From: an uncultured Bdellovibrionales bacterium
GTDB taxonomy: Bacteria > Bdellovibrionota_C > UBA2361 > CAZKXU01
Reading direction: 5' to 3'
DNA: 64,000 nt
NCBI GenBank assembly: GCA_964556665.1
Contig: CAZKXU010000001.1
Location: 36,078-100,077 of the forward strand
A model generated the notes under the pieces. It was not told where the DNA came from. It saw only the letters and a program-made list of their open reading frames with translations, and ran no database searches. Shown piece by piece: positions 8,637-63,277 of this stretch (position 1 is the first letter of the stretch; each line of letters opens with the position of its first letter). Position numbers and translations under genes: made by a program.

Positions 8637-8830
8637 GACAAAATAACGTACCGTTATTTTGTCTGTCGGCCTTTGACCATCCGTGGCCAAAGGCCTCCTC
8701 GAACGGCTTGAAACGGGTCCCCGAGCGCCCATTTCAAGCCGTTCTCCGAGCCTACGGCTCGTCCTGGCCATCCATGGCCAGGCTATAGCAAGTGACAGAA
8801 TAACGCTACGTTATTCTGTCACTTGCTATA
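8637..8830. repeat. Composite multi-hairpin element family B, copy 1 (about 195 bp, four consecutive perfect or near-perfect hairpins)
   Basis: GACAAAATAACGTACCGTTATTTTGTC; GGCCTTTG...CAAAGGCC; GAACGGCTTGAAA...TTTCAAGCCGTTC; CTATAGCAAGTGACAGAATAACGCTACGTTATTCTGTCACTTGCTATAG. Nearly identical at 63083-63277. Confidence 0.85.
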
Positions 8831-8887
8831 GTCTGCCCGTAGCCCGCAACATAGATCTTCTATGTTTTCCGTATTATTATCATATGT

Positions 8888-9316
8888 ATGTCACTTACAA
8901 TTAATAGATTGCTGACAATCCCCGACTCTGAGCTCAGCTTTACCTTCAGTCGTGCTTCTGGCGCAGGCGGGCAGAATGTAAATAAGGTTAATAGTCGTGC
9001 TACTCTTATTTGGAATGTTTTTAGTTCAAAGGCAGTTTCCTCTGAGCTGAAGGCCCGTTTTATCTCACTTTTTAGTAATCGGATTAACCAGGCAGGTGAA
9101 CTTCTTATCTCCTCTGACCGATTTCGCGAGCAGAGCAGAAACCGAGAGGATTGTATCTTACGACTTGAGAGTATGATACAAAAAGCGTTACATAAGCCTA
9201 AGTTGCGGCGCAAAACAAAGCCCAGTAATGCCTCACATGAACGGCGTATAACTGGCAAGAAGATCAGATCTAAGAAGAAAAATAACCGTGGAAGAATTAA
9301 ATTAGGACAGCTTTAA
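8888..9316 (+). CDS. arfB: Peptidyl-tRNA hydrolase ArfB (ribosome-rescue factor, release-factor-like)
   Basis: GGQ motif (SGAGGQNVNKVNS). About 140 aa with a basic C-terminal tail (KLRRKTKPSN...RSKKKNNRGR). Confidence 0.8.
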   Translation: MSLTINRLLTIPDSELSFTFSRASGAGGQNVNKVNSRATLIWNVFSSKAVSSELKARFISLFSNRINQAGELLISSDRFREQSRNREDCILRLESMIQKALHKPKLRRKTKPSNASHERRITGKKIRSKKKNNRGRIKLGQL

Positions 9317-9533
9317 TATGGAACACTTCAATCGAAAAGATGGGCCGTTTCAACTTTTTCAACGCAAGGTTGTTAATAAAAGTAATTACAACTTAGTTGA
9401 GTATATTAAAGTTATTCTTATCCTCTGTGTAGTGCGAATAGTTATGCTGATTTCTGGTGTGACTTTTATTGCTATTCCCTATCTAGATGGTGTATTACGA
9501 ATGCTCATATCAATGGTGATGTAGATAGTTAAA

Positions 9534-10238
9534 ATGCCCAAGGACGTAACATACAGCCGGATCGGATTTGAGGTGCAGGAGATGTTTGGCTCCATTGCAG
9601 CTGGGTATGATCGTGCCAATACGATTCTTAGCTTTGGTATACATCATCTTTGGCGTAAGGCGCTTATAGCTAGCCTTCCAAAGGGCCAAAAACTCGAGAT
9701 ATTAGATCTTTGCACGGGCACTGCAGATCTTATTCCACCTCTGGTCCCTCTAGCAAAAAGGTTGGTAGGAGCTGATTTCTCTCTGCCTATGTTAGTCCAA
9801 GCAGGGAAGAAGCTTAATCGGCTTGGTTTAAAAGCAGAATTAGTACAGGCAGACGCCCAAAATCTTCCATTCGCAGAGATGAGTTTCGATCTGATAACGG
9901 TGGCTTTCGGAGTGAGAAATTTTGAAAATTTAGAATTGGGATTAAAAGAGATGCTTCGCGTAATTAAGCCGGGCGCCACAATTAGAATATTAGAATTTGG
10001 CACACCTCCCGGCCTTTTTGGTTTAATCTACAAATTTTATTCCGATAAGTTGCTGCCACTTATAGGTGGATTAATAACAGGAAATCGTGCTGCTTATCGC
10101 TATCTGCAGAAGACCTCCTCTCATTTTCCGTATGCCGATCAGTTTGCTGCTAAGCTAAGCGAGGTTGGATATCAAGATGTAAGTTATAAGGCCTTAACCT
10201 TCGGTATTTGTTATCTTTATTCAGCTAGACGGATCTGA
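9534..10238 (+). CDS. ubiE: UbiE/MenG family demethylmenaquinone methyltransferase
   Basis: N-terminal FxxxAxxYDxxN (FGSIAAGYDRANTILS). SAM motif I ILDLCTGTADL. Confidence 0.75.
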   Translation: MPKDVTYSRIGFEVQEMFGSIAAGYDRANTILSFGIHHLWRKALIASLPKGQKLEILDLCTGTADLIPPLVPLAKRLVGADFSLPMLVQAGKKLNRLGLKAELVQADAQNLPFAEMSFDLITVAFGVRNFENLELGLKEMLRVIKPGATIRILEFGTPPGLFGLIYKFYSDKLLPLIGGLITGNRAAYRYLQKTSSHFPYADQFAAKLSEVGYQDVSYKALTFGICYLYSARRI

Positions 10239-10431
10239 ATCGTCTCTATTGATTAGGTCTAAGTGATATCCTAAAATATGTCCTTTAATAATGCTCAGTT
10301 GATGCTCTTTGCAGAATGTCGTTCTATCCTTGCCAGTAACGAATTCATTAATGACTTAAAAAATGGTAGAATAGTGGCCAGTTCTGATTCAACTGGAACC
10401 GTACTCATCCTTTATTTTTATTGAGAATTTT

Positions 10432-13827: not shown

Positions 13828-13833
13828 TTTCTG

Positions 13834-27430: not shown

Positions 27431-29011
27431 TTGAAGAAAAGAGGCGGTTCAGGTTCGAAAGAGGGAATCGAGGTCATAGACAGGCCTGATGGAAAAAAGG
27501 AGGTCAAGGTTAGGCAGGTCGATCTCGCTGCTGCTGAAAACAAAAAGGAAGCAGTGGCAGCGAATCGGAGTGCTTGCGAGGGGCTTTCAGGCCTTGCACT
27601 CAAGGGCAAGGTCGTTCTCTTGAGCTTCGTCGGAGAGAACGGTTCCCGAGTAGCGCCAAGCGACACTATGCGTGACTTCGCGATCGGGAAGCTGCGCGGA
27701 AACTGTGCAGGGCTCTTCAAGCCAAACCTGCAAAGGGGTGGCTGGGAGGCGCTCTCGAAGAAGCAGGAGACGCAGTTTGTCCCGTTCGAGGAGGGCGCTG
27801 CCCCTGTGCTGGAGGTATTCGAGGAGGTTCCCTCGGAACCAGAAGCCTACGTAAAGCGGCTCTACATCGGAAGTGCTGATGCTTCCGGTGTGCTGACCAT
27901 TAGCCTTGATCTTGCTCCTCATTCCGCACTGATAGCGGATCTGGAGCGCGAGGCTGCGGAGAAGCGTGAGAGGGTCGCTGGTAAGGTGGTGGTTCTCGAG
28001 GCGCGCGCTGGTGGTGAACTGAAGAGCGATCACTGGAAGGCAGTTTTGCGTGGATTTGGCGCTGTACTTAAGGCAAAGCTGGTTCTGCGCAAGAGCTCTC
28101 TCGGTGATGGAAACTACGTTGTGCTCTTCAGCACCGATGAACGCTGGAACTTGGATAGCCGCAAGATCCTTGCCGAGCTCTTGGCACCGGTCGAATCGGC
28201 GAATCCGCAAGAGACGTCAGCGGCGGCTGAGCCGGCGGCAGAGGAAGTGGTGGCTGAAGAAGCTCCCGTGGCCGAAGCTGCAGAGCCAGAGGTGGTAGCC
28301 ACGGATGACGGCGCGCAAGCGCCGCCAGATGTTGCTCCACCCATGGATGAAGTTCCTGCAGTTGTAGAGACATCTGCGGCCGAAGCCACTCCTGCGCCGA
28401 CGGTGAAGGAAGCAGACGACGGTGCGCAGGTTCCGCCAGATGCACCTGCACAAGTGGTTGAAGTTCCGGCAGTTGAGGAGGTGCCTGGTACACAGGTGCC
28501 AAATGCTGCTGAGCTTGTGGTGGCTGAAGAACCACCACTTGGGCTTGAGGAGCTTTTGCCTGATGCGTTGCCGGCTGAAGAAGTCGCGCTGCAGGCTCCT
28601 ACTATGCCCGATGCTGCTGTTACTGCTCCCGATGCCAGCGTGGCAGAAGCTGCAGTGACACCCCCGAGTGGAGATGGTGATGCGGTCCAGGCGGCCGATA
28701 TTCAAGCAGCTCCCGAGGCTCCACCGGCAGAGCCAGAAGTGGTGGGCACAGCAGTGCTAGTTGAAGCACCGGACGTGGTGGCGCAGGCTCCGGCGGTTGA
28801 ACTGCTAGAGGAGATGTCTCCTGAGACAGGAAGAGCTGCGTCACAGATCGAGGCATTGCCTGCGGATCCAGCCCCTAGTGACGGTGCTCCACCGGTAGCT
28901 TCACTTGCACCTGCTTCCAGATCGGTACCGCCACATAACGGGCTGAAATGGTGGCAGATCATTCCCAAGCTACGTCGCCGCATGGCAAAAAACCTTGGGT
29001 TGCGAGAGTGA
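27431..29011 (+). CDS. GC-rich Pro/Ala/Glu-rich repeat protein, unknown function; TTG start
   Basis: Long ORF in a visibly GC-rich island. Acidic PAPE-type low-complexity C-terminal half with an approximately 117-bp tandem repeat (DDGAQ.PPD...EVPAV). Confidence 0.55.
   Translation: MKKRGGSGSKEGIEVIDRPDGKKEVKVRQVDLAAAENKKEAVAANRSACEGLSGLALKGKVVLLSFVGENGSRVAPSDTMRDFAIGKLRGNCAGLFKPNLQRGGWEALSKKQETQFVPFEEGAAPVLEVFEEVPSEPEAYVKRLYIGSADASGVLTISLDLAPHSALIADLEREAAEKRERVAGKVVVLEARAGGELKSDHWKAVLRGFGAVLKAKLVLRKSSLGDGNYVVLFSTDERWNLDSRKILAELLAPVESANPQETSAAAEPAAEEVVAEEAPVAEAAEPEVVATDDGAQAPPDVAPPMDEVPAVVETSAAEATPAPTVKEADDGAQVPPDAPAQVVEVPAVEEVPGTQVPNAAELVVAEEPPLGLEELLPDALPAEEVALQAPTMPDAAVTAPDASVAEAAVTPPSGDGDAVQAADIQAAPEAPPAEPEVVGTAVLVEAPDVVAQAPAVELLEEMSPETGRAASQIEALPADPAPSDGAPPVASLAPASRSVPPHNGLKWWQIIPKLRRRMAKNLGLRE
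28303..28536 (+). repeat. Approximately 117-bp in-frame tandem repeat inside the GC-rich gene
   Basis: GATGACGGCGCGCAAGCGCCGCCAGAT... recurs as GACGACGGTGCGCAGGTTCCGCCAGAT... Protein level DDGAQAPPD / DDGAQVPPD. Confidence 0.6.
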
Positions 29012-29020
29012 AGTCAGTGC

Positions 29021-29070
29021 GTGCGGGGGTGTGTCTGAAGCAGCAGACACACCCCCGCGGCCCTTAGTGG
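29021..29070 (+). terminator. Strong GC hairpin after the GC-rich gene
   Basis: GCGGGGGTGTGTCTGAAGCAGCAGACACACCCCCGC; no clean U-tract. Confidence 0.45.
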
Positions 29071-29237: not shown

Positions 29238-29281
29238 AAAAACGGTGTGCATATTTATCATATGCACACCGTCTCATCGCT
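29238..29281 (-). terminator. Intrinsic terminator for the pilin-like gene
   Basis: Minus strand reads CGGTGTGCATATGATAAATATGCACACCG followed by TTTTTTT. Confidence 0.7.
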
Positions 29282-31038: not shown

Positions 31039-31126
31039 TATTCTGAGGCATTTATACATACCTATTTTAACAAGTTAGTTAAATCCACAAGCAACAATTT
31101 TATCATTTTCTCGAATATATAGATAT

Positions 31127-31320
31127 ATAGTGAGTGACAGAATAACGTAGCGTTATTCTGTCACTCACTATAGCCAGGCCATGGGTGGCCAGGTCGGGCC
31201 GAAAGGCCCGGAGAACGGCTTGGAATGGGCTCTCGGGGATCCGTTCCAAGCCGTTCGAGGAGGGATTTAGCCATGGACGGCTAAATCCCGACAGCCAGAA
31301 TTCCGCTACGGAATTCTGGC
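31127..31320. repeat. Family B element, copy 2, opposite orientation and diverged terminal hairpin
   Basis: Starts with ATAGTGAGTGACAGAATAACGTAGCGTTATTCTGTCACTCACTATAG, ends with GCCAGAATTCCGCTACGGAATTCTGGC. The central GAACGGCTTGGAA...TTCCAAGCCGTTC hairpin is shared. Confidence 0.75.
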
Positions 31321-31356
31321 AATCATTATAGATCTTACTTTAGCTACTTTTCAGGA

Positions 31357-33360: not shown

Positions 33361-33546
33361 CTAGTGCTCCTCCAAATAAGTTTTTTCACGTATAGCATCA
33401 CATCGTTGCCCCACCTTGTCACGCTTCTCAGTCGGAAAATCCTCGCAATACTCCAGTATTGCTGCGGATTTCCTCCTTCCGAGGCGTGCCAATCTGGGGC
33501 AACGCTGCGCGCTATACGTGAAAAAACTTATTTGGCGAAGCACTAG
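33361..33546. repeat. MITE-like element C2, inverted orientation relative to C1
   Basis: Reverse complement matches 4106-4292 with about 1 mismatch plus TIR tip variation. Confidence 0.85.
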
Positions 33547-42619: not shown

Positions 42620-42627
42620 ACTAAACC

Positions 42628-43086
42628 TTAATAAGTTCTAGCCTTAGTTCCTGGCACCAAAATTCTGACAAGATGACGCTTATGATCAACCTGCACATCG
42701 ACATTTGCACGTCTTGAAATGCGCTTAGCTAAATCATCTAAGCTGCCGATGGCATCCATTGTTAGTCTTCTGTCAGCAAGTTCATATGCTACAAAACTTG
42801 AATAACGTGCGCTTGATGCGAGAATTGATGCCACCTCTTCAAGCGAGGAGTTCTCTACGCTGAGATGCAGCTCTGGCATCACAACCGGAGCCGCAGCGCG
42901 TTTAGTCTCACGTGCTGGTTTGGTATACGGCATATACTCAATTTTTACCCTACCATACACAGGCTCTGGTGGTAGCTGTTCTGTAGCTACACGATATTGG
43001 GGTATAGGCTCTGGCTCTGGCTTGGAAAAAGATGCACAACCACAGAGGCATAAACCTAATATTATGGCAGAAATCCGTGCTATCAC
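42628..43086 (-). CDS. Lipoprotein (T4SS outer-membrane/periplasmic component?)
   Basis: Lipobox LCLCGC. Overlaps the upstream gene by 4 bp. Confidence 0.45.
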   Translation of the reverse strand: MIARISAIILGLCLCGCASFSKPEPEPIPQYRVATEQLPPEPVYGRVKIEYMPYTKPARETKRAAAPVVMPELHLSVENSSLEEVASILASSARYSSFVAYELADRRLTMDAIGSLDDLAKRISRRANVDVQVDHKRHLVRILVPGTKARTY

Positions 43087-43535
43087 TGTCTTCTCCTAAC
43101 ATCATCTTCGTAAACATAAGGAAGATTTGAACCTGCACTAGCGCCAGGACCTTGCAGCTGTTTCTCAAGCTCGAATGAATCCTGTACTGCCCAACGCTCT
43201 TTTAAAACTTTAATGTAGTAATAGTGATCGGGCACTAAATCTCCGTGACTATTGACATGATCGGGTACCCACATAATTCGAACAACCGCGGGCTGCATAA
43301 CAGGGTTCGCTGGTTCCGGCTCCTGAGCGCGCCTATAGGTTGATAACTTCTCAAGTGAGGCTCGCGCTGAATCCATCTTGTCAGCCTCATTTAGTAGTGC
43401 TCGATCTGTTCTTTCACCTAGAAGTGCTTCCGGCTTTGGGGCTTCATAGAACGGATTAAGCACATTACCTGCTGAGGCGCATCCACTAAGTACTACTGCT
43501 GCTGTCCATGTAAATATTATACTACGAATCTTCAT
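43083..43535 (-). CDS. Lipoprotein (T4SS-associated)
   Basis: MKIRSIIFTWTAAVVLSGC lipobox. Start taken at the internal Met of the 43613 ORF. Confidence 0.45.
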   Translation of the reverse strand: MKIRSIIFTWTAAVVLSGCASAGNVLNPFYEAPKPEALLGERTDRALLNEADKMDSARASLEKLSTYRRAQEPEPANPVMQPAVVRIMWVPDHVNSHGDLVPDHYYYIKVLKERWAVQDSFELEKQLQGPGASAGSNLPYVYEDDVRRRQ

Positions 43536-43557
43536 AATTACCTCCAAAATTTCTATC

Positions 43558-44892
43558 CTAATCAAGCGCGCTATAAATACTCTCGTCAGTCTGCATCGAT
43601 TCAAATAAGCCATCTATTGTTAAAGGTTTTGCAAAAACCGCAGTGGCTTCCCGGCCTGAAAGAACCTGAACATGTGGTACTAACTCGCTAACACGTTGCT
43701 TGACGATCTCGCTCCACTCACGAGACGCTCCGGACAATCCTTTGCCTGCAGCAAATGCGAGAGAGTCGCCGGTAACGGCTTGTCCTACGCCTCCATACGG
43801 ACTAACATATGTTGTGGCCTGCGCATCTGAAGCCGCCTTACCAATGCCATCAAGTGCACCGGCAAATCCAGCTGCACCGATTGCTTTGCCGATCGGATCT
43901 ATAAGAAGGCCTTGCATGCCACGAATTCCATCTTCACCTACAACCCAGCCATCAACTTTAAATACACGTCGACTGCCATCTGGGTATCTAATGTTAAGGT
44001 CTGTAAGTCGAAATAATGCGCGTGAATCACTAAGAGAACCTTGCGCTGCCGCAATTAGCCTTGCTTCACCAAGTGGCAGTACTGATCCATCCGGACCTTG
44101 AATATCGCCACTTAGTTTAAATACAACTGGGTAGGGTGTGCCATCTGTAGGAGCATTGACTCCTGCTAATAACTTAATTCGAACTGAATCTCCCGTCCCG
44201 ATATATGCTATTTTGCGCGGAGCAGCTGGTGGAGGTGGAGCCACGCCAGGCTCTTCATTTCCAAACGATTCAAGCTCTCCAGTATCGTTCATTGCCATAT
44301 CGTAACTAGTGCCGCCCATGCCTGGCATACCCCCAGCATCTACATCCATTGGATTTGGATATCCTGCAGCAGATCCTGTCGCGCCTCCAGCTCCATAAGC
44401 ACCCTGCGCTCCGCTGTTGAATCTGCCGTGGGCAGTTGCTGCAGATCCTCCGTACGCAGCCCCTGCTGCACCAGCGGCTCCAGGCGCACCCGCCGCTCCG
44501 GCTGCACCCGCTATTCCAGCAATTCCATTACCACCAGAGCTACCCTCATCGGAAATACGCTCCAATACCTTTTTAAAGATCTCTGCCGTTTTCTTTTCAT
44601 ACTCGGTTTGAGCTTTATTTTGGTTCTCAACTGATTTGCTTAAGTCTGTCAGTACATTTTTAGTACCTTCTAACTCATTGCGAAATCTCTCGATGAGATC
44701 ACCATACGCCTCATTATTATTCTTATTCGTGAGACGCTCTGTTGGCTGAGCTCTGGCATCGAGACGACGGTTCCGGCTAGTAGGCCCAGAAAAAATCGTC
44801 CATGCTAAGAGAAGGAGGCCAACTAAGAGGATAAACCTCGTCTTGGCGTCATTCTTGATGAGAAGTTGTAAGTCCTTTAGTTTTTGTTTCAT
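43558..44892 (-). CDS. VirB10/TrbI/DotG(IcmE)-like T4SS core protein
   Basis: N-terminal TM anchor, Gly/Ala-rich low-complexity linker, C-terminal beta domain. Position after the VirB9-like gene. Confidence 0.5.
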   Translation of the reverse strand: MKQKLKDLQLLIKNDAKTRFILLVGLLLLAWTIFSGPTSRNRRLDARAQPTERLTNKNNNEAYGDLIERFRNELEGTKNVLTDLSKSVENQNKAQTEYEKKTAEIFKKVLERISDEGSSGGNGIAGIAGAAGAAGAPGAAGAAGAAYGGSAATAHGRFNSGAQGAYGAGGATGSAAGYPNPMDVDAGGMPGMGGTSYDMAMNDTGELESFGNEEPGVAPPPPAAPRKIAYIGTGDSVRIKLLAGVNAPTDGTPYPVVFKLSGDIQGPDGSVLPLGEARLIAAAQGSLSDSRALFRLTDLNIRYPDGSRRVFKVDGWVVGEDGIRGMQGLLIDPIGKAIGAAGFAGALDGIGKAASDAQATTYVSPYGGVGQAVTGDSLAFAAGKGLSGASREWSEIVKQRVSELVPHVQVLSGREATAVFAKPLTIDGLFESMQTDESIYSALD

Positions 44893-44900
44893 ATGCTACC

Positions 44901-45701
44901 CTACCTTGCTGATTTAGGTTTGGTTACAATGTAAATTTTAGTCTGATGCTTTCCTGCTATCTGATGCTCAATATTGAGAGGCTTAGCAGCTAATTCCCAA
45001 TTTTGCATAGATATTGCTCTGGTACCATCAAGACGAAAAGTTGCCGGATTAATGCGCTGTACGACATCTAGGCGATTCTCCGCATCGATAATATAACCCC
45101 AAAGATTTGGTCCAATTATTAGTTTGTCAATTTTGGCTGAGAGTGTCCCGTCATCAAGCACCACCTCGCCGCGATATTTTTCGCTGATCTGATATCCTGG
45201 CACTGCTCCCTTACCGAACTCAGTTACTAAGACCATCTCGCGCATTAGGCCGCTAATCGCAGTAGGCGGGGCATATTCATAGTTTTTTTCCTTATATGCT
45301 GGATCCATCTCCTCTTTGGATAAAATCATAGATCCACGCTCATCCAAAATTCTTACTAAATTATCCCTTGGACTCTCATCGTTGGAGCGTTGTGCACGAA
45401 TCGAGTAAGAGCGACCATCTTCAAGCCGTACAATGATTGCTTCACCCTGGTCGCTGAGAGACTCTCTTGCAAAGATAATTAGATCTGAATCTTTCTTATC
45501 TAGAGAGATGGCGGAGTCTTTTCTTTTGAAGCCTCCCGAGATCTTCCCTGGGAACTCTAGCTGAGTTGGCTCTCCAGGAGTTACTCGTATAGTGACCTCC
45601 TGATTGTCGTACTGTACGTCACGAGCCAAAGCTGTGTTCGCAAGCATCAATAGACCTGAGATTACGAAGCTAAATTTTACAAATACATCTTTCCTGTTCA
45701 T
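44901..45701 (-). CDS. VirB9/DotH(IcmK)-like secreted T4SS core protein
   Basis: Signal peptide, beta-rich. Position between the VirB8-like and VirB10-like genes. Confidence 0.45.
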   Translation of the reverse strand: MNRKDVFVKFSFVISGLLMLANTALARDVQYDNQEVTIRVTPGEPTQLEFPGKISGGFKRKDSAISLDKKDSDLIIFARESLSDQGEAIIVRLEDGRSYSIRAQRSNDESPRDNLVRILDERGSMILSKEEMDPAYKEKNYEYAPPTAISGLMREMVLVTEFGKGAVPGYQISEKYRGEVVLDDGTLSAKIDKLIIGPNLWGYIIDAENRLDVVQRINPATFRLDGTRAISMQNWELAAKPLNIEHQIAGKHQTKIYIVTKPKSAR

Positions 45702-45709
45702 AAATGCCC

Positions 45710-46426
45710 CTATAAATTTCTACGTTCCATAGCCGCCTCTTTAGCGCTCTTTTCTAATTCGTTTTTAATCTCTCCCTTCTTAACATCTTTAACGCCAACA
45801 TCAGTTATTACGATTCCATATTGATTAAGGCCATTACGAGGAATCGTTGTCATAGTTATTGTGTATGTAGTTAACAAGACGGGAAGCTCTTTGCCTGCGA
45901 TTATCTTTTGACGCTCGCCGGTCATGCTTACCGTAACTTTATTGTCCTCCCGTTTAATCTGATTGAGCGTTGGATCAACCCAGAAGAGTTGTGTTCGATT
46001 AGTCCCTTCAATAGCTGAAAGTTCAGCATCGAGGATTTTAATATTAAATTCGGAAAGTAATGGCTCCACCAGCATTTTACGAGCTTCAGTAAATTGACGC
46101 TTAGCGTTATAAGGCTGATAGGTAGCGACAAAATTAATATAATCTGTCGCCATATCCATAAATTCAGTGTCCGGGATTTCACGAGCTGCATAAATCCCAG
46201 GCAGCGGTTTTTGCGGAACGTTTATTTCTACCTTTCTTGTCCACCAGGTGATGAGTGCAAAGATTAAGGCGATACATGTAGCAGGAATTTGAAGCAGTGC
46301 GATAGCTCGCCAGAACAAAGCCTGATCTTTATACGACTCCCAGATACGGATGGTATCTCCTGCAGATCTGCCATCCATAATCTCTGTCTGTTTGATAGTA
46401 TTTGCTACTGCTACTTTCATAAGCAA
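45710..46426 (-). CDS. VirB8/DotI(IcmL)-like bitopic T4SS protein
   Basis: Cytoplasmic N-terminus, single TM (LLQIPATCIALIFALITWW), periplasmic domain of about 170 aa. Confidence 0.4.
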   Translation of the reverse strand: MLMKVAVANTIKQTEIMDGRSAGDTIRIWESYKDQALFWRAIALLQIPATCIALIFALITWWTRKVEINVPQKPLPGIYAAREIPDTEFMDMATDYINFVATYQPYNAKRQFTEARKMLVEPLLSEFNIKILDAELSAIEGTNRTQLFWVDPTLNQIKREDNKVTVSMTGERQKIIAGKELPVLLTTYTITMTTIPRNGLNQYGIVITDVGVKDVKKGEIKNELEKSAKEAAMERRNL

Positions 46427-46436
46427 TTACTCATTA

Positions 46437-46823
46437 TTACGCTTGCTCAACTTCTTTAAAAATTTCATCAAGATTAAGTTGAACGTATTCTCTTGATCTC
46501 TTCATCTCTTTAATCGGTGCTCCGCTCCACAACGGCTGTAAATTTGCCGGTGAAGGAATGTTGGGTGGATTAATCCCTACAAGTACTAAACAAAAATTCA
46601 TCAGCCCGCGCTCCTCGTCTGGAAATCGACTTCGCAGTGTTGCCAGTATCGCAGTCGTGCTAATCCATATAAGTAGTAGTGCTGGCATAGCGGTCGATGT
46701 CTTCTTAAAAAAGAGTTCACTTGAGATCATGAACATGGAGAATCCTGCGGCCCATTCCCCCAACTTGGCGCCAAGCATAGTCCATGATTCATTTAGTCCC
46801 TGTATGACCTCTCCGTTATCCAT
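46437..46823 (-). CDS. Small membrane protein (IcmM/DotJ-like position)
   Basis: Two hydrophobic helices, 128 aa. Confidence 0.35.
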   Translation of the reverse strand: MDNGEVIQGLNESWTMLGAKLGEWAAGFSMFMISSELFFKKTSTAMPALLLIWISTTAILATLRSRFPDEERGLMNFCLVLVGINPPNIPSPANLQPLWSGAPIKEMKRSREYVQLNLDEIFKEVEQA

Positions 46824-46834
46824 TCATCCCTCCC

Positions 46835-47251
46835 TTATTTCTCAATCTCCTCTTTAGTGCTGGAGTCACTCTCAGAAGACTGCTTACTTCTAGTCAGCCT
46901 CTGATCTGCTTCTGTCTCATTTAATAGACGGCTATCTGCCTGAAATCTTACGCCGCTCTCACTTAAGCGTGGCTGCGGATCAAGCAGTCGCTCTAGTTCG
47001 TCGACCCGACTTAATACTGTGTTTCTCCATATACCTGCGTCTAACATCGCATCCGGATCGGCCAGCTCTCTAGCACGATCAAACTCTCTTAACGCCTCTA
47101 CAAGATGAGCCCGTGATCTGAGATAATGTCCTTTAGCTGATGCCAGCCTCTCCCCTTTAGCGTTCTCAATGCCAACACGGCGCTCTGCAGAGGCTTCCAG
47201 TAATGGTGCCAGTGCAATCGTTGCCACCAGTAAGTATGCGAATTTCTTCAT
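46835..47251 (-). CDS. Secreted periplasmic protein, first gene of the minus-strand T4SS operon
   Basis: Signal peptide MKKFAYLLVATIALAPLLEASA. Confidence 0.4.
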   Translation of the reverse strand: MKKFAYLLVATIALAPLLEASAERRVGIENAKGERLASAKGHYLRSRAHLVEALREFDRARELADPDAMLDAGIWRNTVLSRVDELERLLDPQPRLSESGVRFQADSRLLNETEADQRLTRSKQSSESDSSTKEEIEK

Positions 47252-51788: not shown

Positions 51789-52316
51789 TTGGTTTTTATA
51801 AGAGTAGGTTATATGAGTGAAGGACTAAATTTTACAATCAATAAATCATTTGGACGTTTAAGACTAGTTCCGGATACGGTTGGTCTTAAGATGAGCTACG
51901 TGCCCATAGTCAACGGCGAGGCAGCTTCTGAGGGAGAAGGTGCTCTAGACTTAGAGATTCCACTTGAAGCAGTAGGTGGGCTTTGGGCTACTACCCGTGC
52001 TTTTCTATATGGAGTTGAGTCTCTTGATGAGAATGTGATTTTACGTGGACCAGAAGGGGACATCTTAATAAAACTTTATAGGGATAAGCCGCGTGGACAG
52101 ACCGGCAAACTGACAGGTGAGGAGGTTTGTTGGCTTCGTATCGTAACCGGACGAAGTGAGGAGGAGAGGCGTCGTATTAAGCTTGGGCCACGTGATCTTC
52201 TTTGTATTGAGCTTGCTTGTAATTCTGTCTTAGTTTTATCAAGCAATGCGCAGGCGATGGGATCGAAAAATGTAGCTGCTCATACTGGTGCTGCTCCCAG
52301 GGTCGCAGCCGGCTAA
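51789..52316 (+). CDS. Hypothetical protein (175 aa)
   Basis: ORF convergent with LanM, 4-bp overlap. Confidence 0.4.
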   Translation: MVFIRVGYMSEGLNFTINKSFGRLRLVPDTVGLKMSYVPIVNGEAASEGEGALDLEIPLEAVGGLWATTRAFLYGVESLDENVILRGPEGDILIKLYRDKPRGQTGKLTGEEVCWLRIVTGRSEEERRRIKLGPRDLLCIELACNSVLVLSSNAQAMGSKNVAAHTGAAPRVAAG

Positions 52317-55300
52317 GTGACTGACGTATCTCTAATACTGCCTAATGTTAAAAATGGGATGAACTTATCAGGATCTACAATTCTAAGTAGTTGATAGCCT
52401 ACTCCTGATAATCCTTGAAATAATCCTGGATTGATAATATCCGCAGATGTAAATGGCTTGCATTGCCATATTACCTGTTTTTTGCGTAATTGATAAAGCC
52501 AAGCTAACCTTCTCTTAGCTTTAGCTCGTAAGTCGCTCCCAGCCTGTAGCAGTAATTCCAAACAACCTAAATTGCCACAACATGGGCAATCATTGTCCTC
52601 GGCTTGTAATTCAAGTGTTAACTTGAGTGATCTATTAATATCTGGCTGTAGTGCAGCCTGTAGTTCTGGAAATAATTTACAGATCGCTACTCTTGATATT
52701 CCGATACCACACGCACCATGACACCATTTACATGAGATCTCAGCTCTGTCTCGGGATGAGGTTCTCTCATCTCTTAAATCTGCCCAATGTCCATTTACTG
52801 GATCGATGAGAGAGTTTTCATATTCTATACCTTCAAGTGCAGCTTTACGATATCTCTCATCAGCTGTGAATTTAAATGCACGTAATAGGGCAAGAGAAAT
52901 CCCTGCTGCACCATGAGAAAAGCCAGTAAGCGGATTTTTAACTATAGATTTCCAAGCACGTCCATGATGCTCAGAGGTAACTCTGTTAGCAACTAGATGA
53001 TCTGCTAACATTTGTATTCTAAGTAGCAACTCATTCGTATGTGTATCGTCATAGAGAGCAGAGAGAGCATGTAGTGCACCAGCGCTCCCAGTTAGCACAT
53101 CTAACATATTATCACGCTCAATAAGTGAGTGTGTAATAGCTGTAGTAATCTGTATAGCGCGATCCGTGAGAGTAGGCATTTTTAAGTAGTTGCCCGCTAT
53201 ATGTAGTGCATAAGCCGCAGATGATATTCCAGCGCCAAGTCCGAGTCCTGGCTCAAATAGGCTAATTCTACTAGGAACGCCTGATATCCATTCGGAGCCT
53301 TTAAGTACTTTTAAGGATAGATCATACCATCTCTGATCCTGAGTAGCTTCAAAGAGTGCGCTAAAAAAAAGCAGGATGCCGCTTGAGCCTGCATATAAAC
53401 AGCTAGAAGGCGGTCTATATCCAATGCGTTTGTAATCAACAATATTTGAGGTAGGAACAAGCCAGGTCAATCCACCATCATCGCCATGACAGGCCTCTTG
53501 CAGCACCAACTCTCCGATATGAACCGCTTCATTTATTAACTCACTATCATTACATTCACTTTCACCCCAATCCACGCTCTTGACTATTGTTGATGAAGTA
53601 TACTCTCCTAATGATACTGCGAGTCTTTTTCTCTCCTTTTGAAGCTTTGTGATAGATGCTGCCTGTAGGCGCTCTTTTGCACAATCCAAGGCAGATTTTT
53701 CTAAATAGCCTGCGGCTACTTTATCGATATTGTATTGTAGATCTTTGCTACCAAATTTAGCACTAAAATAAGGAACATCTCCTTCTAGGATGCAGTTTAA
53801 TTCATCATCTAAGAGGGCTAAGCTTTTCGGATCCCCTTTTCCATCAAGAAATGGAATTATTAATCTATCACCTGCAATACTCCAATCTATTCCGCTCATA
53901 AGATGATTAGGCATCGCTAGAATCGCAGATACTTGCTCGTAAAACATAGTTGGCCGCAGAACAAACCGTCCATCAATAGATGCTGCTCGAGTAGGAAGTT
54001 CGCAGAGTAACTTGTTACGTTGAGAGAGAATAACTTTGTAATACTCCTCAAATCCCTGCAATATATCTTTGGCATATAACAGTGAATTGCTTGCCTCTCC
54101 TTCTAGTCGTGGCAACGAGTTATCTACTTTAAAACTCATGTGGTCATATTGATATGTAGGCTTATTGTTATGCGAATAGTCCCATGAAAGAACACGATAA
54201 GGAGTCTGCTGAATTCCAGTGCCTCCTAGCGCAGAAAGATCAAATATCCCAACACCCTCTACTTCCCCTGTAACTCTAGGAACAAAACCGGTAGATTCGA
54301 CTCCCTGACTTAGCTCTAATAATGCCTGTTTAACAGCACTTGGCAAACTTGAAGCTTCAAACAACCTTGAGCTGTGTGGATGCAGGATAGTTTCTGCGTC
54401 AATAATAATAGGCGCAGCTCTATTACAAATCAGATTTTCTACATGACAATCATTGCCGCCCAAAAGAAAGACAAGTGCACATAAGCCTCCAATCTTTTGG
54501 TATGCCTCCTTAATTTCAGCTTCATTTTGACAGGGAGAATTATTTATATATTCAAACCAGGAGTGTGTGTGAGAGTCTCTATATTTTGGTGACTGAAACG
54601 GTAGATTAGGCGATGCTTCAGTAATTGTCTCTAAAATCTGTCTTAGAAGTTCATCAGTCTCTGCACTGCGCGGTTTGTATACTATTTTGTTGCCTGTAGA
54701 TGATTCGATTATACAGCTACTTCTTCCTCGGTTGTGTTTATCGCCTGCTCCTATATGTAGGCTCTTAATCACAAGAGGTAGATCTTGATAGAGAGATAAT
54801 TGCTGTAATAACTCCAAGTCCTTAATTGTTCTGTCAATTAGCTCAATCACAGAGTCTTCAAAATTCAGAAGTACTGATGAGATTACTCTAGCTAGGACAG
54901 GATACTGTTTCCAGAGAGGACGATACTGTTGTGAAGAGAGCCATCCTAAAAACTCTGGATAGCTACTTTTACGAATACCAGCGATAGACCCAAGATGACG
55001 CTGACGGAAGACTGTGTACTCGGAATAGAGGCAAGGAGTGATTAAGCTAATAATCTTTTGTGTTATAACGGCATCTAATTGATTATATACATCTTCAACA
55101 AAAATAACTTTATTCTGTTTATTTATTCTTCTTCGTATATTCTCTATCCTAAAGTCAACTATAGGTTTGAGAGGATTAAGATCAATAACAGATAGTAGAG
55201 TAGGAGTATCTAGCTGCAATGGTTTGAAGAGAGCTTCTTCGATACGCACTGCAATAGTATTAGCAGTTGGTATGGATTCGTTATGTGATACCTCTCTAAC

Positions 55301-55543
55301 TGCTAGCCAAGAATCCAAGAGATCTCGCTCTGGAAGCCAGTTCCAGCGCTCTTCAAGAAGAGTCCCTGTGTTGTCGTTGAAGATCTTTTTCCATGCACCT
55401 ATCCGTGCATTCTTTGCTGCATTAGTTAAAGTGGAGTGTAGTGGTTTGCATCTCGAATTTATTAATTCCGATATGGTAAGAGAGTTGTGGGCCAGTAGCG
55501 AGCAAAACTCAGTAACGCTTATATTCTTATAATCTATCTCCAT
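52313..55543 (-). CDS. lanM: Class II lanthipeptide synthetase LanM (ProcM-like, Cys-Cys-Cys zinc site)
   Basis: Dehydratase-domain motifs GNDCHVENLI and IIIDAETI. LanC-like motifs SHGAAGISLALL, KWCHGACGIG and CPCCGNLG. 1076 aa. Confidence 0.85.
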   Translation of the reverse strand: MEIDYKNISVTEFCSLLAHNSLTISELINSRCKPLHSTLTNAAKNARIGAWKKIFNDNTGTLLEERWNWLPERDLLDSWLAVREVSHNESIPTANTIAVRIEEALFKPLQLDTPTLLSVIDLNPLKPIVDFRIENIRRRINKQNKVIFVEDVYNQLDAVITQKIISLITPCLYSEYTVFRQRHLGSIAGIRKSSYPEFLGWLSSQQYRPLWKQYPVLARVISSVLLNFEDSVIELIDRTIKDLELLQQLSLYQDLPLVIKSLHIGAGDKHNRGRSSCIIESSTGNKIVYKPRSAETDELLRQILETITEASPNLPFQSPKYRDSHTHSWFEYINNSPCQNEAEIKEAYQKIGGLCALVFLLGGNDCHVENLICNRAAPIIIDAETILHPHSSRLFEASSLPSAVKQALLELSQGVESTGFVPRVTGEVEGVGIFDLSALGGTGIQQTPYRVLSWDYSHNNKPTYQYDHMSFKVDNSLPRLEGEASNSLLYAKDILQGFEEYYKVILSQRNKLLCELPTRAASIDGRFVLRPTMFYEQVSAILAMPNHLMSGIDWSIAGDRLIIPFLDGKGDPKSLALLDDELNCILEGDVPYFSAKFGSKDLQYNIDKVAAGYLEKSALDCAKERLQAASITKLQKERKRLAVSLGEYTSSTIVKSVDWGESECNDSELINEAVHIGELVLQEACHGDDGGLTWLVPTSNIVDYKRIGYRPPSSCLYAGSSGILLFFSALFEATQDQRWYDLSLKVLKGSEWISGVPSRISLFEPGLGLGAGISSAAYALHIAGNYLKMPTLTDRAIQITTAITHSLIERDNMLDVLTGSAGALHALSALYDDTHTNELLLRIQMLADHLVANRVTSEHHGRAWKSIVKNPLTGFSHGAAGISLALLRAFKFTADERYRKAALEGIEYENSLIDPVNGHWADLRDERTSSRDRAEISCKWCHGACGIGISRVAICKLFPELQAALQPDINRSLKLTLELQAEDNDCPCCGNLGCLELLLQAGSDLRAKAKRRLAWLYQLRKKQVIWQCKPFTSADIINPGLFQGLSGVGYQLLRIVDPDKFIPFLTLGSIRDTSVT

Positions 55544-56432: not shown

Positions 56433-56434
56433 AC

Positions 56435-56588: not shown

Positions 56589-56646
56589 TTCATAGATATG
56601 TTAATCCTTGCTAAAGTAGTAGTACTTAGAAACGTATATACTACGT

Positions 56647-58473: not shown

Positions 58474-58500
58474 TTGGTCCGGGTAAAATTAACTCATAAT

Positions 58501-58579
58501 TCACTGGGACCGCGGGCATCCTTGCCCGCTTGCCCGTCAAAACTGATTCGTTTGCGGGCTGGAAGCCCGCGGTCCCAGT
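58501..58579. repeat. Palindromic element family A, copy 5 (most symmetrical)
   Basis: CACTGGGACCGCGGGCATCCTTGCCCGC...GCGGGCTGGAAGCCCGCGGTCCCAGTG. Fills the uvrB-uvrC intergenic space. Confidence 0.8.
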
Positions 58580-58586
58580 GTCCAAC

Positions 58587-60602
58587 TTAAACTTTTAATA
58601 ACTCCATCTGTATCTCATTAATTGCATCACGCAGACTTGCTGCACGTTCGAACTCTTTTTTAGATGCCGCATCAAACATCTCTGCTTTGAGCTTCTCTAG
58701 GAGAGCTAATTGACCATTTCTATCTTTTGGTATTTCCGTGGCTAGATTTAGTGCTGAGAGTTTCTGAGCAGTAAGATCAATATCAAATTCACCTAATAGA
58801 GAGGATTTCATCTCACTCTTAACAGAGTGAGGAGTAATGTTATTTTTTGCATTAAACTCCGATTGAATATTTCGTCTGCGCTCGGTCTCTTTTATAGCCT
58901 GCCTAATTGAATCCGTCATCTTGTCTGCGTATAGAATTGCCCTGCCTTTAATATTTCTTGCAGCACGACCCATAATTTGAATTAATGAACGTGTGGAGCG
59001 TAAAAACCCCTCCTTGTCTGCATCCAGTATCGCTACCAAGCTTACTTCAACTAGATCAATACCTTCACGAAGCAGATTGATGCCGATAAGAACATCAAAG
59101 TCCCCTCTGCGCAGGCCGCGCAGTATTTCAACCCTTTCAATGGTTTCGATATCAGAGTGCAGATATTTTGAGCGCACTCCGATCTCACGCAGATATGCGG
59201 ATAGATCCTCAGCCATTCTCTTGGTTAAAGTTAAGGCCAGTACCCGTTCTCCTGCCTGCACTGTTTTGCGGATTTCATCTAACAGATCGTCAACCTGATT
59301 TGTTGCCGGCCGCACATGGATTTCAGGATCAATTAACCCAGTTGGCCTGTTAATCTGCTCTGCAATATAAGGCTTACTCTTCTCAAGTTCAAATTCCCCA
59401 GGAGTTGCAGAGACAAATATTACCTGGCCTGTTCTCTCCCAGAACTCCTCAATATTAAGAGGTCGGTTATCGAGTGCTGAGGGCAATCTAAACCCGAAAT
59501 CAACTAAGGTCTGTTTACGAGAACGATCACCCCTATACATGCCGCCAAGCTGAGGTACAGTAACATGGCTTTCGTCGATGACTAGTATGAGATCCTTTGG
59601 AAAATAGTCGAGCAGGGTGGCTGGAGGAGCACCTGCCTCTCGACCTGCTAGGTGACGGCTGTAATTTTCAATGCCTGAACAAAATCCGATCTCCTGCATC
59701 AGCTCAAGATCATATAGTGTACGGTTCTGTAGCCTTTCCGCCTCCAATATCTTCCCTTTACCGCGCAGCTCAGAGACTCTTTCCTTGAGCTCTGCTCGGA
59801 TGCTTTTAATTGCGCGCTCAACTGCGGGACGGCCGGTAACGAAGTGGCTGGTTGGATAGATTGCACATGTCTCAAGCTTTCTCAGCACGGTGCCGCTAAT
59901 AGAGTCGATCTCCTTTATCTCCTCAATTTCATCACCAAAGAATAAAATCCTAATTCCCTTGGCATCTTCATCAGCAGGAAATATATCGATAGTCTCGCCG
60001 CGCACTCTAAAAGTTCCGCGGGTAAATTCAAAATCGGTGCGTTTATACTGCATATGTACTAATTTCTTGATCACCTCTTCACGCGGCAGTTGCTCGCCGA
60101 CTTCCGCAAAGAACATCATCTTAAAGTATTCATCCGGTGCTCCTAAGCCATAAATACAGCTTACGCTTGCTACAATTATAGTATCGCGCGCCTCTAGAAG
60201 AGCCTTTGTAGCACTGTGACGCATCTTATCGATCTCTTCATTTATAGCTGAATCCTTTTCGATATAGGTGTCGGTTGATGGGATATAAGCTTCGGGCTGA
60301 TAATAGTCGTAGTAGCTAACAAAATATTTTACACGGTTTTCCGGGAAAAACTCCTTAAACTCACCATAAAGTTGCGCTGCTAAAGTTTTGTTAGGGGCGA
60401 TGACCAGAGCAGGGCGATTCGCATGCGCTAATAGATTAGCGACTGAGAAAGTCTTTCCCGATCCAGTTACGCCTAATAAAGTTTGAAACTTTATTCCGTC
60501 TGCTATGTTCTTTTGCAGAGCTGCAATTGCCTGCGGCTGATCGCCGCGTGGCTCAAATGACGATCTTAGTACAAATGGTATGTTTTGTATGGATGGAGGC
60601 AT
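58587..60602 (-). CDS. uvrB: Excinuclease ABC subunit B
   Basis: [11 protein letters not shown] Walker A, helicase motifs, C-terminal UVR domain, 671 aa. Confidence 0.95.
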
Positions 60603-60712
60603 GTGGCAGTATCATATCACAATTAATGAATTGGAAGGAGAACCATAACTATAGTAATTCGTGAGCTACATTTTAAGGACTTCACCTAAGGGCGCGTCAT
60701 TATGTGCACGAG

Positions 60713-61159: not shown

Positions 61160-61163
61160 AATA

Positions 61164-61913
61164 CTATTCCTCGGTGTTAAGAAGTAATCCAGAATTTAAA
61201 GCAGCATTAATAAAATTCTCTCCTTCTGTGGCGGATATTAAGGCAGCATTCCTTAAGATCTCCTGCAGATCCACTACCTGATCTCTAATGTAGTCGCATA
61301 ATTTTATAAGGGCTGGAGAGATCTCTACAAAGTTAACTTTTAGTAAGGTCCTGTGTCTATATGCAATTAAGTGGTAATTCCCCTTATGTAAAGGGAGCTC
61401 CTGAAACTTAATCCGATGTACTGGGTACTGTAGCCGTATATGTCGATGTTCTGGGTTAAGCAGCACCCCCTTTTTCCCTGCAGAGTGTGCTTTTTTTACT
61501 GCCATATCAGAGAGATCAGGCATCATGAAAACTTCTATCTCTACCCATTCAAATAATAAAAGATCGGCAAGCGCTAAGCAGTTCATTAACTCCGGTAGCT
61601 TGTTATCAACACAATATTGCATAAACTCCTCTGGCATGCGCCATAATTGTGGAGAGGATGAGCGATGCTGTCGCATGAAGCGGCTGACCAGAAAATACCA
61701 ATCAGTAGGTTTTAGTACTGCGTTAGTGATCGGATAAGCTCGTTTAAGCGTATCTTCAATTCCATTCCAGATGAGGTCTCGATATATTCTACCACGCTCC
61801 GGCTTTACGCTAGGAATATAAGTCTCTCTTCCTGTTCTACTCCAGCTCGCTAAGGCTGATTGATAAACATGTGTCTTAGGGCTAAGCAGCATTTTGATGC
61901 TCCCATGAGGCAT
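61164..61913 (-). CDS. DUF2063-family partner protein (HvfC/MbnC/BufC-like)
   Basis: Overlaps the DUF692 gene by 32 bp. Size and position are typical of MNIO partner proteins. Confidence 0.5.
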   Translation of the reverse strand: MPHGSIKMLLSPKTHVYQSALASWSRTGRETYIPSVKPERGRIYRDLIWNGIEDTLKRAYPITNAVLKPTDWYFLVSRFMRQHRSSSPQLWRMPEEFMQYCVDNKLPELMNCLALADLLLFEWVEIEVFMMPDLSDMAVKKAHSAGKKGVLLNPEHRHIRLQYPVHRIKFQELPLHKGNYHLIAYRHRTLLKVNFVEISPALIKLCDYIRDQVVDLQEILRNAALISATEGENFINAALNSGLLLNTEE

Positions 61914-62727
61914 TCATGATGCTCTCTAGTTGCATCATCTCCGCCGCCAATTCTGAATATTGCGGAAAGTTAAAATCTCTCTCGAGTAGTACCGGTACTG
62001 GCTGCAGTTTCTTGGTGGCATACGAGAAAAGCTTAAAAACATCTGCAATAATAGGCTTCCCATGGGTGTCTATGATCAGATCCTCAGCTCTTTTTTCATG
62101 TCCAGCCATATGAATGTATGAAACTCGTTGGAGCGGCAAGCTATCTATAAATTTATAAGGGTCATACTTATGATTGAATGAATTAACATATACGTTATTT
62201 ACATCTAATAGGAGGTTGCAATCTGCCTCATTAAGAATGGAGGTAAGAAATCTGACTTCATCCATTTCCGGTGCAACTTCGGTATAATAAGAGATGTTTT
62301 CGATCGCAATGCGCATCTCTAGAAAATCCTGTACCTCTCTAATTCTACGGACTAGATGCTTTACTGCATCTTGGCGGAAAGGGATTGGCAGCAGATCGTA
62401 CAGGTGAGCGTTTTCACATTTGCAGTAACTTAGATGCTCAGAATAGATCGAAATATTAAACTGTTTGAGGAAGGTCTTTATTTTAGAAAGAAAATCCCAG
62501 TCCAAAGACTCAGGGCTTCCTAGTGAAAGTGAGAGTCCATGACAGGTAAGTGTGTAACGCTCAGAGATCGAGTGTAAAGTTTTACTCCAGAAACCACCTA
62601 TATCCATCCAGTTTTCTGGAGCAAGCTCTACAAATTTGGGCTTGTAACCTAGATCGCTTAGTAATGCCTCTGCTAAGTCACGTCTAAATCCAAGCCCAAC
62701 TCCTGAAGGGATCCTGGCTATGGGCAT
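61882..62727 (-). CDS. DUF692 multinuclear non-haem iron oxidase (MNIO; MbnB/HvfB/BufB-like)
   Basis: Signatures GLGFRRD, SEHLSY, LLDVNNVYVN, IHMAGH, IDTHG. 281 aa. Confidence 0.8.
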   Translation of the reverse strand: MPIARIPSGVGLGFRRDLAEALLSDLGYKPKFVELAPENWMDIGGFWSKTLHSISERYTLTCHGLSLSLGSPESLDWDFLSKIKTFLKQFNISIYSEHLSYCKCENAHLYDLLPIPFRQDAVKHLVRRIREVQDFLEMRIAIENISYYTEVAPEMDEVRFLTSILNEADCNLLLDVNNVYVNSFNHKYDPYKFIDSLPLQRVSYIHMAGHEKRAEDLIIDTHGKPIIADVFKLFSYATKKLQPVPVLLERDFNFPQYSELAAEMMQLESIMNASWEHQNAA

Positions 62728-62730
62728 CTG

Positions 62731-63024
62731 TTACTCTCCACACTTACCTTCACCGCATTTTGCCTCAGCGCCCTTATCCTCTTTTTTCCCTTCACCGCAC
62801 TTTCCTTCACCACACTTGCCCTCTCCGCACTTTCCCTCGCCTGACTTATCAGCTTCATTTGAGATCGCATCGGAGTTGGCGCCATTTAGAGCTAGAATTG
62901 ATGATCGCACCTGCAATCCAGATCCAAGGAAAGAAAAGCCCGATTCGGCCTGTATGCTATTCACGCCAATCAAGGCACCGGCTACAACAGAGAATTTTGC
63001 AACGTTTACAAGAGTCTTTTTCAT
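62731..63024 (-). CDS. Secreted RiPP precursor with six EGKCG repeats (HvfA-like)
   Basis: Sec signal peptide, then GEGKCGEGKCGEGKCGEGK...AKCGEGKCGE. Stop lies 4 bp before the MNIO start. Confidence 0.65.
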   Translation of the reverse strand: MKKTLVNVAKFSVVAGALIGVNSIQAESGFSFLGSGLQVRSSILALNGANSDAISNEADKSGEGKCGEGKCGEGKCGEGKKEDKGAEAKCGEGKCGE

Positions 63025-63082
63025 ATAGTGCGTTCCTTTAAAATATTAATTATTAAATTTATCCAGACGTATTATACTAATT

Positions 63083-63277
63083 GACAAAATAACGTACCGT
63101 TATTTTGTCTGTCGGCCTTTGACCATCCGTGGCCAAAGGCCTCCTCGAACGGCTTGAAACGGGTCCCCGAGCGCCCATTTCAAGCCGTTCTCCGAGCCTA
63201 CGGCTCGTCCTGGCCATGCATGGCCAGGCTATAGCAAGTGACAGAATAACGCTACGGTATTCTGTCACTTGCTATAG
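63083..63277. repeat. Family B element, copy 3
   Basis: Near-identical to 8637-8830. Produces the spurious MAKGLLERLETGPRAP ORF, which also appears at 8683. Confidence 0.85.

Follow-up and report, generated by a model that had tools for sequence, protein, structure and literature searches.

What kind of element is a short repeat built as a chain of hairpins, and does it act as DNA or through an RNA copy of itself? The question is raised by a 207-nt sequence that occurs three times, beside unrelated genes, in a 64-kb stretch of contig CAZKXU010000001.1 from an uncultured bacterium (the window). A first-pass annotation had described this repeat as either a miniature inverted-repeat transposable element (MITE) with nested palindromes or a structured noncoding RNA. 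We found features of both, and the evidence does not separate them. The most fitting description is that of a MITE-like dispersed repeat: short, noncoding, with sharp common boundaries and in unrelated contexts. Beyond this description we propose, with a probability of about 0.4 and on the basis of sequence analysis, that it is a mobile multi-hairpin element whose RNA would resemble the TwoAYGGAY RNAs (Rfam family RF01731) and may bind a protein of the CsrA/Rsm type.

Copies, hairpins and compensatory changes

A direct-repeat search of the window identified copies A (8626–8832) and C (63072–63278) as a 207-nt repeat with 98% identity and unrelated flanks. Copy B (31125–31331) lies on the opposite strand and represents a diverged subfamily that shares 84% identity with copy A across 185 nt. 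In A and C the RNA-sense strand proposed below corresponds to the minus strand, in B to the plus strand. A profile hidden Markov model (HMM) made from the three copies detected them with E-values of 4e-77, 5e-77 and 1e-70 (nhmmer) and found no fourth copy in the 64-kb window; a covariance model of the core recovered the same three only. The invariant 22-mer CTCCTCGAACGGCTTGRAACGG occurs three times in the window as compared to zero expected occurrences (100 shuffles). Repeat search and profile HMM thus agree with the first-pass annotation, which had listed three copies of about 195 bp at these places, two of them near-identical and the third inverted and diverged; the unit reaches about 11 nt past hairpin H1.

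The gene context is also as that annotation had given it (upstream of arfB, upstream of a hypothetical gene, and in the gap between a peptide precursor gene and pheT). Copy A sits between the divergent genes for a membrane protein (7813–8610, minus strand) and arfB (8888–9316, plus strand), and the 3′ end of its RNA strand is 15 nt upstream of the ATG of the former (8610). Copy B is located downstream of an EamA transporter gene (stop at 31038) and 31 nt upstream of the ATG of a hypothetical gene (31363). Copy C is located downstream of the pheT stop codon (63406) and 47 nt upstream of the ATG (63024) of a Cys-rich precursor with GEGKCG repeats, which belongs to the ribosomally synthesized and post-translationally modified peptides (RiPPs). 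Comparison of the reading frames revealed no conserved open reading frame (ORF) across the copies. As the H4 loops of the subfamilies differ by a 1-nt indel that puts all frames out of register, frames are not conserved between them, and a coding function was rejected.

Folding resolved six local hairpins per copy, two more than the four described before, with stems of 12 (H1), 11 (H2), 13–17 (H3), 6 (H4), 8 (H5) and 23 bp (H6). In the orientation of the first-pass annotation, the order is H1, H2, a CCTCCTC linker, H3, H4, H5 and H6; primed names denote the same hairpins on the proposed RNA strand, where H6′ is 5′-terminal and H1′ is 3′-terminal. The predicted RNA folding energies of −119 to −136 kcal/mol correspond to z scores of −14 to −17, and none of 200 shuffled sequences was equally stable.

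In copy A, H6′ (8783–8831) is a 23-bp perfect palindrome with the arm CTATAGCAAGTGACAGAATAACG and a UAG loop, followed by H5′ (8763–8782; CCUGGCC-AUGGAU-GGCCAGG) and by H4′ (8747–8761), which has a 6-bp stem and the loop GUA. The central hairpin H3′ (8701–8744) contains 17 bp including one U·G pair, and its apical loop carries the conserved sequence CUCGGGGA. It is separated from H2′ (8668–8695; GGCCUUUGGCC-ACGGAU-GGUCAAAGGCC, with one G·U pair) by an invariant single-stranded linker (8696–8700), which together with its flanking bases reads GAGGAGG, a Shine–Dalgarno (SD)-like motif with one GGA (CCUCCUC on the other strand). The 12-bp stem of H1′ (8637–8663) is a sequence relative of the H6′ core, and the 11-nt 3′ tail that follows it (8626–8636) shows homology to the H6′ outer arm. 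A common core, GGCCAYGGATGGYC, is present in H2 and H5. The element is therefore pseudo-symmetric: alignment with its own reverse complement gives a score of 106 as compared to −42 ± 16 in shuffles. The loop triplets of H1 and H6 have opposite orientations, and the ends accordingly have the character of terminal inverted repeats (TIRs). The six-base loops of H2 and H5, in contrast, point in the same direction.

Copy C follows copy A closely. Its hairpins H4′ (63193–63207), H3′ (63147–63190), H2′ (63114–63141; loop ACGGAU) and H1′ (63083–63109) are accompanied by an H6′ (63229–63277) in which one A-to-C change breaks a pair, and by an H5′ (63209–63228) in which the loop has mutated to AUGCAU with loss of the GGA. 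In copy B, the stems differ from those of copy A in a more revealing way. H6′ (31126–31172) is a 22-bp palindrome with two compensatory changes, and H5′ (31174–31193) contains one A·A stem mismatch and the loop AUGGGU. H4′ (31195–31210; CGGGCC-GAAA-GGCCCG) has one compensatory change and, through a 1-nt insertion, a GNRA-type loop. H3′ (31213–31256) combines one compensatory change with one G-C to G·U change. Three compensatory stem changes are found in H2′ (31262–31289; GGGAUUUAGCC-AUGGAC-GGCUAAAUCCC) and four in H1′ (31294–31320; GCCAGAAUUCCG-CUA-CGGAAUUCUGGC).

We counted these changes over the 77 pairs of an alignment of the three copies. Between A and B, 26 paired columns differ, and 11 pairs are altered on both sides (6 by transitions, 5 by transversions). 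All 11 still pair, in a comparison that is limited to three copies from two subfamilies. Two further changes switch between G-C and G·U, and only 2 of the 77 pairs in copy B are non-standard, one of them at a terminal gap. When 26 random paired-column substitutions were simulated 200,000 times, a mean of 19.2 pairs was broken and the minimum was 6. The substitution density is similar in stems (26/154) and at unpaired positions (8/42). The sequence drifts while pairing is held, and the six hairpins are actively maintained. The first-pass annotation had associated a lack of both compensatory changes and transcription with a plain selfish repeat, and the 11 compensated pairs depart from this expectation.

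We also considered a basal stem of the TwoAYGGAY type between H6′ and H1′. Such a long-range stem could form 12 of 12 pairs in copy A and 9 of 12 in copy B. Because the four internal compensatory changes of H1 destroy part of its pairing with H6, it is the local hairpins and not an outer basal stem that are conserved; as H1 covaries internally, this candidate was rejected.

Strand asymmetry and AYGGAY loops

The informative strand of the element is probably the complement of the one on which it was first described (minus in copies A and C, plus in copy B). Four features point to this strand. Non-Watson–Crick stem sites appear on it as three G·U pairs and no A·C pair; it is 10–12 kcal/mol more stable than the opposite strand in both subfamilies; it contains six GGA motifs in copy A and five in copy C, as compared to none on the opposite strand of either copy; and it presents the AYGGAY loops, a motif that was missing from the first-pass description. 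Four of the GGA motifs are unpaired in all copies (in the H3′ apical loop, the H4′/H3′ junction, the GAGGAGG linker and the H2′ loop), and up to two more occur. The loops of H5′ and H2′ read AUGGAU and ACGGAU in copy A, AUGGGU and AUGGAC in copy B, and AUGCAU and ACGGAU in copy C. Between A and B, the only two changes in the H2′ loop are transitions at the degenerate Y positions, so AYGGAY is retained next to a stem with three compensated pairs. AYGGAY loops that face the same direction would not be expected from a simple inverted-repeat origin. They fit CANGGANG, the consensus for CsrA and RsmE, the H5′ loop of copy A included. On the strand that is favored by the G·U pairs, all three copies end 15–47 nt upstream of a co-oriented start codon.

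A pair of hairpins that end in AYGGAY loops defines the TwoAYGGAY RNAs (Weinberg et al. 2010, PMC2864571; bioRxiv 10.64898/2026.09.22.753630), and in the canonical form these two hairpins rise sequentially from a common basal stem. Gardner and Eldai proposed the AYGGAY loops as CsrA-binding sites (PMC4333381). In Pseudomonas, these RNAs are multi-copy (median 11–23, up to 202), and extra hairpins, a mobile-element-like expansion and, as an idea, binding of Csr/Rsm proteins to the loops have been described (bioRxiv 10.64898/2026.09.22.753630). The extended form from Pseudomonadota contains three extra hairpins, an elongated basal stem, a 3′ pseudoknot and an upstream array of GMTBT(T) 5–6-mers (bioRxiv 10.64898/2026.09.22.753630).

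An Rfam scan with Infernal, which had been suggested as a check along with the first description, gave a divided answer. At the gathering threshold no match was found. In E-value mode, with a 271-nt region as the query, the TwoAYGGAY model matched copy A on the minus strand across the whole element (29.4 bits, E = 0.007) and copy B on the plus strand in the region of H2′ (22.8 bits); both scores are below the gathering cut-off of 43 bits, and Infernal E-values are unreliable for palindrome-rich sequence. The matched strands are those predicted by the G·U analysis. MicroRNA (miRNA) families that also matched in this mode were dismissed, since long perfect hairpins give rise to such artefacts. 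The TwoAYGGAY model did not match a control repeat of the window that is equally palindromic, and hairpins with AYGGAY loops proved to be rare in 1.4 Mb of bacterial control DNA unrelated to the window (11 in 2.8 Mb of strand, of which 3 have stems of at least 7 bp). A genuine TwoAYGGAY example for comparison was not found in 147 kb of Pseudomonas and Clostridia loci. We do not assign the element to RF01731 and call it TwoAYGGAY-like. We infer that the resemblance may be due to homology as opposed to convergence.

Several observations weigh against a TwoAYGGAY-like RNA. Apart from the sub-threshold scores and the fact that the same region matches miRNA hairpin models, H4′ and H3′ intervene between the two AYGGAY hairpins H5′ and H2′, which are not adjacent on a common basal stem, and the H5′ loop lacks GGA in two of three copies. 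Within 200 nt upstream of the copies there are 0–1 GMTBT(T) motifs per copy, as compared to a window background of 1.8 ± 1.3. No csrA gene was detected in the 64-kb window by tblastn with three CsrA/RsmE sequences, and no conserved promoter-like or terminator-like site is present in or at the three copies. The orientation of copy A is uninformative because this copy sits between divergent genes, which leaves the co-oriented start codons of B and C with a chance expectation of 1/4. The three copies are effectively two independent sequences. Finally, compensatory changes alone do not prove a function as RNA: single-stranded DNA (ssDNA) intermediates of transposition or templated repair of palindromes could give rise to these changes and to a tolerance of G·T as well, and folding with DNA parameters is equally good (z = −17).

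If the proposal holds, the single-stranded form that folds into the hairpin chain would most likely be the RNA of the element, and the element would spread by transposition through its hairpin-forming inverted-repeat ends. A copy that lands in a transcribed intergenic region would be cotranscribed with the downstream gene, and its GGA-loop hairpins may then bind a CsrA/Rsm-type or analogous RNA-binding protein. Binding would either place the adjacent mRNA under the control of this protein or titrate the protein. Transcription and protein binding, like mobility, are steps that we infer. A more specific version is unlikely, if conceivable: a mobile element of a deep-branching bacterium, outside the known range of TwoAYGGAY RNAs, would carry CsrA/Rsm-type binding hairpins and, by insertion shortly upstream of start codons, recruit unrelated genes to a post-transcriptional regulon or act as a dispersed sponge. 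The genes for the membrane protein, the hypothetical protein and the RiPP precursor would be candidates for such recruitment, with the same doubt attached.

A sigma-70-like site (TTGTAA-16-AATAAT, 8873–8900, minus strand) is located 42 nt upstream of copy A and is the sole one near this copy. It overlaps the beginning of the arfB coding sequence on the strand opposite to arfB and is directed across the element at the gene at 7813–8610. No SD sequence is visible for this latter gene, whose ATG is only 15 nt away from the element.

Competing explanations and the host

That the element is or was mobile is probable. Over 22 positions, the left end TTATRCTAAWTGACAAAATAACG and the right end CTATAGCAAGTGACAGAATAACG, read as its reverse complement, agree at approximately 17–18, and TA or TATA adjoins all six ends, which fits a TA duplication and equally well a TATA that is part of the element. 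A competing explanation is nearly as likely as the TwoAYGGAY-like RNA, namely, that the element is a plain selfish MITE: a non-autonomous DNA transposon with palindromes that act at the DNA level only, with incidental AYGGAY loops and GGA bias, and with no RNA function. The palindromes could be transposase sites or hairpins of an ssDNA intermediate, or their arms could be kept complementary by intrastrand templated repair. The discrete unit with near-identical copies in unrelated contexts, the inverted relation of H1 and H6 with the resulting self-complementarity, the TA-flanked ends and the lack of a conserved ORF all agree with this explanation, as does the fold with DNA parameters. Both core differences between A and C harm a feature (a stem pair in one case, a GGA in the other), as would be the case in neutral decay. 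The window contains a second, classical MITE family, and a low-coverage metagenome contig from the same organism terminates 69 nt short of copy C, in the way that assemblies break off at repeats with several copies. What a selfish MITE does not predict is the single-strand signature: that all purine–pyrimidine mismatches are G·T on one strand (3 vs 0), that both AYGGAY loops face this strand, and that changes in the H2′ loop are confined to Y positions and the GGA linkers are invariant amid stem drift. Furthermore, the window lacks a transposase, and no element was identified whose ends match.

A strand-specific tolerance of G·T would fit an ssDNA intermediate, and this consideration brings in a REP/BIME-like or IS200/IS605-derived palindrome-associated transposable element that is mobilized as ssDNA by an HUH Y1 transposase (RAYT or TnpA) recognizing the subterminal hairpins H6 and H1 on one strand. 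In line with such an element, hairpins that resemble each other are located close to the two ends, with 10–11-nt tails outside, and GTAG/CTAC is present in the loops of H6 and H1. However, GTAG is positioned in the loop instead of ahead of the hairpin as in REPs, the G·U sites occur in internal hairpins (H2′ and H3′) and not in the terminal ones, inverted-repeat-like ends with TA flanks are unlike IS200/IS605, and no Y1 transposase domain was identified in the 50 ORFs scanned from the window. We consider this explanation improbable. About equally improbable is a family of duplicated but immobile RNA genes or 5′ leaders that regulate the genes downstream of them in cis, for example, by occlusion of the ribosome-binding site or by anti-SD/SD interplay through the GAGGAGG/CCUCCUC linker. 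The position of all copies shortly upstream of co-oriented start codons, the invariance of the SD-like linker and the sigma-70-like site on the right strand upstream of copy A would suit such leaders, but the three downstream genes are functionally unrelated, the 98% identity over a distance of 54 kb together with the sharp boundaries argues for recent transposition, the divergent genes deprive copy A of a telling orientation, and the promoter is not conserved. Less probable still is a function as terminator or as a cluster that stabilizes mRNA 3′ ends, the function known for REP elements. The stop codons of EamA and pheT do precede copies B and C, respectively, on the same strand. Copy A, however, is no terminator because it sits between divergent genes with nothing to terminate; no U-run follows any of the hairpins, no terminator-like site scored in any copy, and six hairpins are far beyond what termination needs, a point that had rightly been made at the outset.

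Beyond the window, the exact 22-mer CTCCTCGAACGGCTTGRAACGG had no match in representative genomes, JGI metagenomes and viral contigs, and the H1/H6 pattern had none in metagenome and viral contigs. A gapped H3 pattern matched one viral contig, which we attribute to chance since the match lies in a coding region and extends to no further similarity. No copy was detected in plasmids and phages (blastn), and a six-frame concatenated pseudo-peptide of the element found nothing at E ≤ 1 in a protein collection. The proteins of the window are singletons in 90%-identity clusters of about 15 billion proteins; the best relative of UbiE is 57% identical, and the best relatives of UvrB are 55–62% identical and come from many phyla. 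Judging from these identities, the host appears to be a poorly sampled, deep-branching lineage without a close relative in the searched collections. Two short contigs from the same organism are present in the ENA metagenome assembly ERZ3430527 (about 2× coverage). The contig that spans copy B shows no difference from the window. The second has 3 mismatches in 1882 nt and is the contig that ends short of copy C, which would fit, as a weak indication, a multi-copy A/C subfamily.

The second repeat family of the window measures about 190 bp (4106–4291 and 33361–33546) and belongs to the classical MITEs: its sequence forms a long, imperfect palindrome bounded by the ends CTAGTGCT...AGCACTAG; its central part seems to be in opposite orientation in the two copies, and it has no TwoAYGGAY match. 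A short hairpin family, TTGCGGGCUGGAAGCCCGCGGUCCCAG, occurs in three copies (1525–1562, 4325–4362 and 58552–58589) with a 7-bp GC-rich stem and GGA in the loop. Two of these copies are at gene 3′ ends (after a proS-like gene at 4364–5887 and after uvrB), and the first is contained in a longer hairpin (1468–1560) that draws matches to miRNA models. Two unique perfect hairpins (29023–29058, 15 bp and GC-rich; 29242–29272, 13 bp) are located downstream of an ORF (27431–29011) with internal direct repeats and no Pfam match.

The upstream region of a RiPP-like operon (61164–63024, minus strand) contains copy C. The operon encodes the precursor (62731–63024; 97 residues, with a signal peptide and (GEGKC)n repeats), an enzyme of the MbnB/TglH/ChrH family (61882–62727) and a DUF2063/HvfC protein (61164–61913), all on the minus strand, a layout that resembles bufferin-type loci for copper-binding peptides. 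The window also encodes a class II lanthipeptide synthetase LanM (DUF4135 and LANC_like, 1076 residues; 52313–55543, minus strand). A conjugative type IV secretion cluster (39860–47251, minus strand) with a TraC-like ATPase, a TrbI-like protein and several unannotated small genes is embedded amid housekeeping genes (uvrB, uvrC, pheT, menaquinone/futalosine) and is possibly an integrated conjugative element.

Comparison with known systems

The Correia/NEMIS MITEs of Neisseria are about 100–155 bp long, have 26-bp TIRs, generate a TA duplication, and are transcribed into mRNAs and processed. The present element resembles them in size, in its noncoding and intergenic character near start codons, in inverted-repeat ends with TA, and in having near-identical subfamily members. 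However, Correia/NEMIS elements fold as one long TIR hairpin, whereas this element is a chain of six independent palindromes, each with its own compensatory changes. REP, BIME and REPIN sequences consist of palindromic units that are mobilized by RAYT and in which GTAG precedes the hairpin. They share with the element short palindromic units split by conserved linkers, an extragenic position and hairpins that are kept as structure. The element differs from them as a fixed 207-nt composite of six different hairpins with defined ends instead of alternating REP copies, in having GTAG in loops and not 5′ of stems, and in that no RAYT was found among the window ORFs scanned. Like the sponge small RNAs of the Csr/Rsm system (CsrB/C and RsmX/Y/Z), the element exposes several GGA motifs on one of its strands, both in the loops of hairpins (CANGGANG) and in single-stranded linkers. 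Unlike them, it consists of copies embedded beside unrelated genes and not of a stand-alone gene, and it has neither an Rfam match to these RNAs nor a dedicated promoter box or Rho-independent terminator.

No function has been demonstrated for the TwoAYGGAY RNAs since they became known in 2010. If the element were indeed related to them, their range would become wider, and the element would offer a compact, testable case of a transposable element that spreads protein-binding RNA modules to new genes; TwoAYGGAY-like RNAs could then be seen as phylogenetically broad "regulatory MITEs" with hairpins under RNA-level selection. If the link is false, the element is another lineage-specific MITE, and it warns that an RNA function is not proved by compensatory changes alone when the repeat is palindromic. 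The differences are substantial: beyond the separated AYGGAY hairpins, the ends of the element fold locally, with H1 covarying with itself and not with H6; the upstream GMTBT arrays and the downstream REP arrays are absent; and the host is not a recognizable Pseudomonadota or Bacillota genome. In common with TwoAYGGAY RNAs, the element has two GC-rich hairpins with AYGGAY terminal loops on one strand (in B and C with one base off in H5′), an H5′ sequence CCUGGCCAUGGAUGGCCAGG close to the model consensus gccCggaCAuGGAUGuccGggc, multiple intergenic copies, extra hairpins, a mobile-element-like spread and a proposed binding of CsrA/Rsm. The element unites clear MITE-like ends, an unusually clean compensatory evolution between its two subfamilies, a single-strand signature and AYGGAY loops in a very different host and in a different hairpin arrangement.

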